A stretch of 64,000 nt of DNA from Takakia lepidozioides (lineage: Eukaryota > Plantae > Bryophyta), in NCBI GenBank assembly GCA_030704615.1, contig CM060732.1, forward strand, positions 49,848,001 through 49,912,000, read 5' to 3'. The notes beneath the pieces were generated by a model that saw nothing but the letters and a program-made list of their open reading frames with translations, made no database searches and was not told where the DNA came from. Positions 53,406 to 55,700 of the stretch are shown one piece after another. The translations under genes were made by a program, and so were the position numbers. The number at the start of each line of letters is the position of its first letter. Within the stretch, counting starts at the first letter, position 1.

Positions 53406-53889
53406 ACAAGGAATACATCCCCAGATTTATCTCTCATGTAGACCAGAACAGGTTCTAGAAACAAGATTGTGGATCTTTCATGGCACACTCACACTCTAAA
53501 AATTCCATAGATTTCTAGCAGAGTCCCAAAAACAGAAACCAGGTCTAGATAGGTAGATTTCCCCTTTCTGCAGCTATCCCCTCAAAAACTGAGTCAAACG
53601 GAGCTCATTTGACAAAGATATGACCAACCAGGCTTTTTAAACATTTAAATTAGATAAAAAATGCCCCCTTTTTTTTTTTAACACCAAAACGTTTTTGCCA
53701 TTACAACCTGTTCCCAGGTTATCTACGGGTTCCCGAGGCCGTTCCCCTCCAGGCTTCTCCGGGCACCAAGAGCTCATTAACTCCAAAACTCGACCTCAGT
53801 TGGGTGGGGTATCACACCCTGGAGGCGATTTGCTTTTCTCTGCGCGTGGGCCTGCCTCCTCGAGCTTTCAGGATGGCAAGGCAGTAGCC

Positions 53890-54000
53890 ATGTTTATGGC
53901 ACGCAGGAAGATTCAGAAGGAGAAGGGGCTCGAGCCTGATGAGTTCGAAGAGGCTGTAGCCCAGGCCTTATTCGACCTAGAGACTACAAACCAAGAATTG
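53890..54000 (+). pseudogene. RPS7: Captured fragment of 40S ribosomal protein S7 (eS7) N-terminus
   Basis: [37 protein letters not shown] matches the plant eS7 N-terminus; similarity ends abruptly. Confidence 0.85.
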
Positions 54001-54229
54001 GGGCGATTTCAAGAGCAGATGCACTGCGCAGCACCTTCATGGCTTATGGACAGGCGGCCTGCTGTAATGTGGCCGTCTTTGCATGGAATGCAAGGCCAAG
54101 ACCAGCTTGAAGTTCCATCAACTTGGTCTAATTCGCATCTCTCGCCAGCAATTATTGTTGGCTTAGAATGGTTTCCGCCTTCCTGTTACTGCTCGTGTTT
54201 CTGCCCTGCTGTTGTTGTGCATCGATAGC

Positions 54230-54595
54230 TTCGGCATCTCTCGGGAATCCATAGCGCATGCGTTGCTTGTGAAGCCTTTGGTTCTGGTTAGTCCCGGCAA
54301 TTGCAGCTCAATTCAGCACCAGCTCCGACAAACCGCCTTCTTGCCTCTCCCTCTGAGATCTGCAAGGACGAAATGTGTCGCTTCCAAACCATCAACAAGC
54401 TTGATTTCTGAAGGATTCTGGACTCCTTCATCCAGTGACAGTCACCAAGTCTGGTCCATGAGGAGTGATCTGGAGTTACCCACCTCAACATATGCTTATG
54501 AGGGGCCAATTGCTCAGGGAGGGCAGGGCCCATCACCCATGTTGGCTGAGCGATTCCAAAGCGTGATCACTCAGCTTTTTCAACAACGAATCATT
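54230..54595 (+). pseudogene. CLPP5: Captured fragment of plastid ClpP5 (transit peptide to start of protease domain)
   Basis: VWSMRSDLELPTS...QGGQGPSPMLAERFQSVITQLFQQRII resembles ClpP5 WSIRDDL..PSS...GQGPPPMVQERFQSIISQLFQYRII. No intron in the fragment. Confidence 0.8.
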
Positions 54596-55537
54596 CCACC
54601 TTGGCTGGCCGATACTGCCGTTCCAGCTGGAGTCGGCATTTTGTGTCTTCACAAAACCAAACAAAACCAAACTGCAGGAATTTGCGATTGCCTCAGTAAA
54701 GTGGAACTCAATTTGCAGCCGCTGGTGCAATGGGACCTTGCCAAGCAGCCCCTTCTTGATGTCAATCTGCAGCTCGCGCAGAGGAAGCGCAGCAAGAAAA
54801 ACTCCTTCACAAATTGACGGCAGGCACCTCTTCCAACATGCACCACATCAGCAGCAGCAAGGTCCAAGCCATTGGGTTTTTCATCAGAGGCGACAAGTGC
54901 AGTTACTGGGGAAATCTGTTCACCCTCAGCCTGCAGGTCCCCCTTTCTATATCAATTGCTCATACAACCCTTCTTAGAACCCTGTGTAGGAGCTTTCCGG
55001 ATGTTTTTCCCTGCAGCCATGACGGACACTGTGAACGGGAGCTTGGCCTTCAACGCTACTGCCTGTGTGCGCTTCGAACATACGATTGTGATCTGCACAC
55101 CAAGCCAAGGTATCTGCCACCGTACTCCCCCGCTGCACGGATGGCATGCAGCTCAATCTTTCAACCCGTTTTCTTCTGGTGGAATTCCGGCTCAAGCAGG
55201 GAGCTATTTCTGGAGCTCGTGCTTACCACCCTCCTACAACTGGCAACGAGAGAAACCCTACCAGCTGCTATACGACAGTGGTTTCAGGACCTTCGTCCAA
55301 GTAGCTATGGATCCTTTACCCTGCACAGCCTTTCGACAAGATCATTGCGATCGAGGTCTGTCCTCAGAACCTCGCACTCGAACTAGATCGCAGCTTGCTT
55401 CCGCAGGTAGCTTTCAAGCGTGGAATCCCGTCTTCCCCTTTCAATCATAGGTTATGGTGAACACATTCTTCTGCTGCCCCCCGAATCAACTTCCTCCAAA
55501 ATACATCGCTCCTGTGCAACAACAACAAAATGGAAAA

Positions 55538-55624
55538 CGCTTCTTGGACGAGCTTGGTATGGCTTATGACAAGTTGGAGAACCACGTTGTCATCAAGCAT
55601 GCCGCTCTCTTCACCTCGACCATC
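55538..55624 (+). pseudogene. THI1: Captured fragment of thiamine thiazole synthase
   Basis: [41 protein letters not shown] is the THI1/THI4 signature. Confidence 0.85.
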
Positions 55625-55700
55625 GACATAGTGCTAACATAAAAGAACTCTATCTAGCTTAGCACTACAAGAAAACTAGATACAGCTGATCTATCTCGAG

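Follow-up and report, generated by a model that had tools for sequence, protein, structure and literature searches.

A mixed-strand mosaic of host gene pieces within the leader of an abundant Dnmt3-bearing Gypsy retrotransposon of Takakia lepidozioides

The window analysed here, a 64,000-nt stretch of the Takakia lepidozioides genome (GCA_030704615.1, contig CM060732.1, positions 49,848,001–49,912,000), contains a very abundant Gypsy retrotransposon that encodes its own Dnmt3-like methyltransferase domain and carries a mosaic of host gene fragments in its leader. The ORFs of this carrier lie on the minus strand, in the order extra ORF, gag, C5 methyltransferase, and reverse transcriptase with RNase H. 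The extra ORF upstream of gag (52656–53426, 256 aa) is common to the whole family and returned no match in a family search. It is followed by gag with a premature stop (49725–52142; Retrotrans_gag, E 0.003), by the Dnmt3-like C5 cytosine methyltransferase domain (48588–49724; PF00145, E 6e-13, the top PDB matches being DNMT3A at E 1.4e-9), and by a frameshifted reverse transcriptase and RNase H found by domain search (46672–48400). The same search placed the integrase (H2C2, rve) and, after it, a PHD finger (E 1.6e-11) on the plus strand at 42392–43750, and found no chromodomain match in the carrier. This change of strand arises because a 4.3-kb block, 42392–46672, flanked by 6-nt inverted repeats, is inverted in the window copy, as seen from the strand-change joint 42394/46671 and from 34 contigs in which RNase H runs directly into integrase. 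As uninverted forms are present in the reads at both sides of the block, the inversion is either private to the window copy or a feature of the assembly. Domain matches and contig joints together place the Dnmt3-like domain inside a Gypsy gag-pol of RT-RH-INT order, several ORFs of which are broken by stops or frameshifts in the window copy. The carrier body is also largely covered by contigs of 0.6–2.2 kb from one run, putatively RNA. Elsewhere in the window we observed an unbroken ORF of 1045 aa that contains a class-3 lipase domain (17064–20201), inverted repeats of 47–55 nt at 21590–26591 near a SURF2 gene fragment (26040–26591; Pfam E 3e-10), possibly another gene-carrying element, and degenerate repeats at 36000–40350 that resemble PPR-gene copies.

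The element is bounded by TGTC and GACA and by a 4-nt target duplication. Its 5′ terminal repeat, B (55701–56056, minus strand; 356 nt, TG..CA), has very high DNA depth and is 100% identical to 44097–44452 (0/356 differences). The 3′ end (43995–44538, plus strand) consists of a purine tract, repeat A (44010–44094), 2 nt, the second B (44097–44452), 1 nt and repeat A′ (44454–44538), followed by the duplication TCTT; between A and A′ there are 3 mismatches in 85 positions, and the A-B junction forms a 10-nt palindrome. The 356-nt pair was considered as the terminal inverted repeats of a DNA transposon and rejected, since with the 4.3-kb block inverted the two copies of B are direct repeats, displaced by that inversion. 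The resulting B..A-B-A′ layout resembles split direct repeats; it is either the design of the family or the product of a two-LTR circle that was cut inside the LTR and integrated. Directly beside the 5′ repeat lies a putative primer-binding site of the self-priming type, an 18-mer (55683–55700, minus strand) complementary to positions 149–166 of repeat B at 16 of 18 positions, a level reached by 0 of 2001 shuffles. The majority allele at 55693 gives it one further pair, and the tRNA-type TGG start is absent. After the primer site comes a subfamily-specific stem-loop (55625–55682, minus strand; fold of 55620–55920, z −4.9), which has a 3-nt deletion in some copies and holds, at 55663, a lone CACTA-like 13-mer. 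Rfam over 41000–58000 and a tRNA scan gave no match. Additionally, one contig from X9, which together with X6 represents two RNA-type runs from two studies (their RNA nature being guessed and not on record), joins the leader at 53747 to position 56005, and so to the initial 52 nt of repeat B, by way of 27 letters from elsewhere, and skips the host fragments, the primer site and most of B. Around the element, the Gypsy insertion divides an ORF into halves that remain in frame, at 55996–56970 and 44541–44783; this ORF belongs to a moderately repeated element, perhaps one with the DUF7869 transposase-like ORF at 62466–63008.

The host fragments lie between the primer-site-like 18-mer and the end of the first ORF at 53426, so that an earlier note on this DNA, made from the letters alone, had rightly assigned them to the leader of the element. 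The three fragments that it named, RPS7, ClpP5 and THI1, are all present, and all are on the plus strand, opposite to gag-pol. The RPS7 piece (53832–54000, left end uncertain) comprises codons 1–37 (53890–54000) and a probable 5′UTR, and is recognized both by plant eS7 in the PDB (E 2.3e-10) and by Pfam S7e (E 8e-5). Plant RPS7 genes have an intron after codon 25. An 8-nt repeat surrounds this piece (53824–53831 and 54002–54009), a weak signal that was equalled at 49 of 1700 mock junctions. The ClpP5 piece (54195–54596) holds 5′UTR, transit peptide and N-terminus (PDB chloroplast Clp chain 7eko_B, E 1.3e-6); its start codon has decayed to ATA at 54251, and from there it aligns with the ClpP protein of an mRNA contig, L001. 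The third, an internal coding fragment of the thiazole synthase gene THI1 (55538–55624), matches PDB 1rp0 (E 1.8e-7) and Pfam Thi4 (E 1e-5). In a Pfam scan of 62 stop-to-stop frames, RPS7 and Thi4 alone passed E 1e-4.

The earlier note had described the whole mosaic as antisense to the element, which is true of these three pieces and fails for a fourth, found among those that it left unnamed. This piece, at 54672–54945 on the minus strand and sense to the element, codes for the C-terminal part of a protein with an NT-C2 (PF10358) domain and has a frameshift near 54797. In its minus-strand frame 27 of 35 candidates passed (best E 1.8e-13, identity 77–94%), many of them annotated PF10358; two further frames of the interval, searched as protein, gave no match. 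By tblastn, the C-terminus of these NT-C2 proteins was recovered in two minus frames joined by the frameshift, and 3.9-kb contigs, putatively RNA, match the piece with 2 differences. An overlapping antisense transcript could have been its source. Two further pieces are transcript-like and carry no assigned strand. At 55446–55530 a fragment of a host transcript is matched by contigs of both X6 and X9, which share the same loose end before 55446; at 54960–55388 contigs of the same two runs match with 19 and 16 differences plus 12 gap letters, and this block holds a 56-nt sub-match (55082–55137) to a second transcript. Protein and domain searches of 54960–55447, Pfam included, returned no match. 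Finally, the piece at 54001–54194, also of no assigned strand, is by depth somewhat more repeated than its neighbours, and is skipped in one variant (joint 53991–54228). Thus, one of the four identified pieces is sense to gag-pol, and as the strand is known for only 4 of about 8 pieces, the 3:1 ratio constitutes no significant bias.

An RNA origin of these fragments is best documented for ClpP5, for which the expectation of intron-free sequence was borne out. A search with the piece yielded 14 loci. The alignment of mRNA L001 to gene L005 of a relative, at 99–100%, marks three GT-AG introns, 332, 124 and 317 nt long, which would fall before about 54370, 54463 and 54587; none of the three is retained in the window, and all three junctions within the piece are spliced. 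In the species itself, one DNA contig of 786 nt matches only 54461–54576. This is a single exon, the contig letters to either side having no match, and with 11 differences the contig is probably a paralogue. More broadly, the pieces are about 94–99% identical to contigs of the RNA-type runs from the species. These contigs leave the window at 54000, 54596, 55538 and 55624 and proceed into the codons that follow in the host genes, continuing as THI1 at both ends of the THI1 piece; contig depth provides no ranking of the genes. No poly(A/T) run of ≥6 occurs in 53700–55700. LINE retroposition was rejected as a source, there being no poly(A) and the pieces including 5′ and internal ones. The pieces are short, come from 5′, internal and C-terminal parts of their genes and lack poly(A), which fits LTR-type and not LINE-type retrocopies (PMC5131818). 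The same evidence bears on the alternative raised in the earlier note, a nested Pack-type insertion, here taken as a Pack-CACTA, a Pack-MULE or a Helitron that brought gene pieces into the leader. The CACTA-type 13-mer at 55663 speaks for such an insertion; however, it faces the LTR 38 nt away, is part of the stem-loop, lacks a 3-nt duplication and, having no partner end, was rejected as an element end. With three introns gone from ClpP5 and no pair of terminal repeats with a target duplication, we regard a nested insertion as very improbable.

Summed depth is 3e5–1.2e6 over the carrier body versus about 1e3 over the cargo, a sum that is not a copy number. In run X1, six cargo contigs have depths of 513–734 against 68–73 for three single-locus-like contigs (∼7–10 fold), and in X4 the cargo stands 6–18 fold over such contigs; on this basis the cargo is probably present in roughly 7–15 copies. 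The cargo lineage is a small minority of the family, and it is eroding by deletions. Variants lacking 53863–53974 and 53991–54228 were seen in two and three runs, respectively, the former at a depth of 952 in X1 and 678 in X4, and two X5 contigs (records 11 and 13) pass from the cargo into other sequence. Between the window and the majority cargo contigs there are 12 differences in 982 positions, against 0/356 within the B pair; the chance of this is 2e-4 to 0.013 if both are equally old. The cargo differences beside identical B repeats indicate that the window copy was probably reverse-transcribed with the cargo already inside, although the identity of the B repeats could also stem from conversion or assembly collapse, and the 3 mismatches between A and A′ speak against it. 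Depth over the flanking host element is similar (about 600–900 at single sites), so that some of the cargo copies could derive from duplication of the whole locus. Exact motif scans in metagenome and viral contigs gave no match.

With regard to how the mosaic arose, we lean, with little more than even confidence, towards piecewise addition by the reverse transcriptase of the element, straying onto co-packaged spliced mRNAs and adding fragments singly. The three reversed pieces would have come from mRNA copied during synthesis of the second (plus) strand, and the forward NT-C2 piece from mRNA copied during first-strand synthesis. An antisense piece could be produced by a jump of the reverse transcriptase onto an mRNA, or else by an mRNA that falsely primes at the tRNA-free primer site and is afterwards copied in the way of a primer; the cargo would later have been carried passively through further rounds of retrotransposition while decaying. 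That the reverse transcriptase was the author, the phase of copying and the passive carriage are what we infer here, the plus-strand phase being a deduction from strand logic: where an mRNA is copied as the element-sense DNA strand grows, the piece must end antisense. A jump to mRNA in the first strand gives a sense piece instead, which is the published model for sense inserts (PMC5131818), and as such standard template switching fits NT-C2 alone and not the other three. Of the earlier proposal of serial mRNA capture by template switching, RNA origin and serial capture from several genes are supported, given the intron loss, the RNA-type contigs and the variants, but the standard minus-strand switch leaves three of the four pieces unexplained. 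The cargo block begins 76 nt from the self-priming-type site, and a tRNA-free primer site so close at hand makes plus-strand or false-primer copying attractive. At the switch points, 30-nt loose ends are available for some junctions and the 8-nt repeat around RPS7 is weak; no microhomology was demonstrated. Pathak and Temin reportedly described retroviral deletions with insertions, a precedent for capture in the plus strand; our literature search found no passage showing plus-strand capture of mRNA.

Mixed orientation is equally expected from random joining of cDNA ends, and two other routes to the mosaic have to be weighed. In one, end-joining inserted cDNA scraps made by any reverse transcriptase, in either orientation, where double-strand breaks had opened the leader, be it in an integrated copy or in free cDNA, and the element amplified the result. 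Besides the mixed orientation, the joining of variants with a few extra letters (5 nt at 53991–54228) and the weak repeat around RPS7 accord with such a history, which nevertheless leaves unexplained why many events cluster in 1.8 kb beside the primer site and none in the coding body, and requires repeated breaks within one small lineage; we consider it rather unlikely. In the other, a sense mosaic was built by first-strand template switching, a single inversion then flipped it, and NT-C2 joined later in sense. This route draws on the published mechanism alone (PMC5131818), and an inversion of 4.3 kb, bounded by 6-nt inverted repeats, is present in the window copy itself. However, a strand change occurs in 0 of the 8 joints listed over 53500–56200 (contigs show presence, not absence), and among the 25 longest of 51 pairs no above-chance inverted repeat was found at the block ends, which makes this route somewhat less likely still. 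Beyond the preferred reading, of piecewise capture by the element's own reverse transcriptase, a broader and distinctly tentative proposal, to which we give about the same weight as end-joining, is that this is a tRNA-independent, self-priming Gypsy-Dnmt3 lineage with split repeats, whose leader would be a hotspot where mRNAs act as false primers or second-strand templates, routinely making antisense to housekeeping genes, and whose ends may arise where the integrase cuts a circular intermediate at a palindrome inside it.

It had also been suggested that antisense cargo might shield the element from silencing or regulate the host genes. This found no support, the cargo being confined to a small minority of the family and undergoing deletion. 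Most likely the cargo is neutral baggage, tolerated because the reversed pieces leave gag-pol coding intact. A useful cargo, compatible with any route of capture, would supply antisense RNA or siRNA against essential genes and so make silencing costly, or would tune host genes. The donors are housekeeping genes, and a contig of X6 (putative RNA) spans from 53742 into the RPS7 piece, although it may be the transcript of a sister copy or donor 5′UTR. Moreover, siRNA cross-talk linked to capture is documented in maize (10.1101/777037). Against usefulness, cargo depth is about a thousandth of that of the family body, deletion variants are at least as deep as the full form, and capturing elements of maize show no gain in copy number in the same report; we therefore judge a useful cargo improbable. 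Cross-talk by siRNA with the donor genes is, by analogy, plausible, and the mosaic allows a test of whether captured housekeeping pieces draw siRNA onto them. Furthermore, a mosaic that is young (about 94–99% identity), multi-copy and mostly reversed, with surviving variants, offers a test of when in reverse transcription capture occurs.

Several known systems share parts of this arrangement. Pack-MULE, Pack-CACTA and Helitron elements likewise hold mosaics of short host gene pieces, but the mosaic described here has neither terminal inverted repeats nor a target duplication of its own, and its ClpP5 piece has lost three introns. Self-priming Tf1/Sushi elements and plant Tcn1 chromoviruses (Neumann et al., 2019, PMC6317226) also have a primer site complementary to their own LTR and not to a tRNA, whereas our carrier has a PHD finger and no chromodomain match. 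Similar in design is KnitGypsy-Dnmt3 of Klebsormidium nitens (de Mendoza et al., 2018, PMC5890265), a Gypsy element with a Dnmt3-like domain in its polyprotein and with repeats that are DIRS-like according to the legend of Fig. 4, which would fit the B..A-B-A′ layout of this one copy. The carrier differs from it in its land-plant host, very high copy number, PHD finger after the integrase (a word absent from the main text of PMC5890265), extra 5′ ORF and leader cargo. The likeness is one of design, and any kinship is putative; a search for relatives of the carrier reverse transcriptase and methyltransferase returned one distant phage-type methylase and otherwise nothing. A Dnmt3-bearing Gypsy with DIRS-like ends has been reported from an alga, and here one of similar design makes up a major family of repeats in a land plant. 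A 2026 preprint mentions Gypsy-DNMT3 of ‘streptophytes’, and the open-access texts consulted, as far as they extend, contain no report of a land-plant Gypsy-Dnmt3 and no mostly antisense, mixed-strand leader mosaic. For the cargo itself, the nearest counterparts are the chimeric retrocopies mediated by LTR elements (Tan et al., 2016, PMC5131818), one described example being a four-gene mouse chimera; maize Bs1 is cited both there and in PMC13317346. Like our mosaic, these consist of incomplete mRNA pieces from several genes, devoid of poly(A) and contained in an LTR element; they are re-amplified as a unit, as our mosaic probably is too. They replace part of the internal ORFs, whereas here the cargo sits in the leader and gag-pol is retained. 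Transduced pieces are, moreover, usually sense to gag-pol (PMC7264820), in contrast to the mixed orientation found here, with three of four pieces antisense. Multi-gene capture by LTR elements is already known; what appears new at this locus is a mostly reversed, mixed-strand mosaic in the leader.
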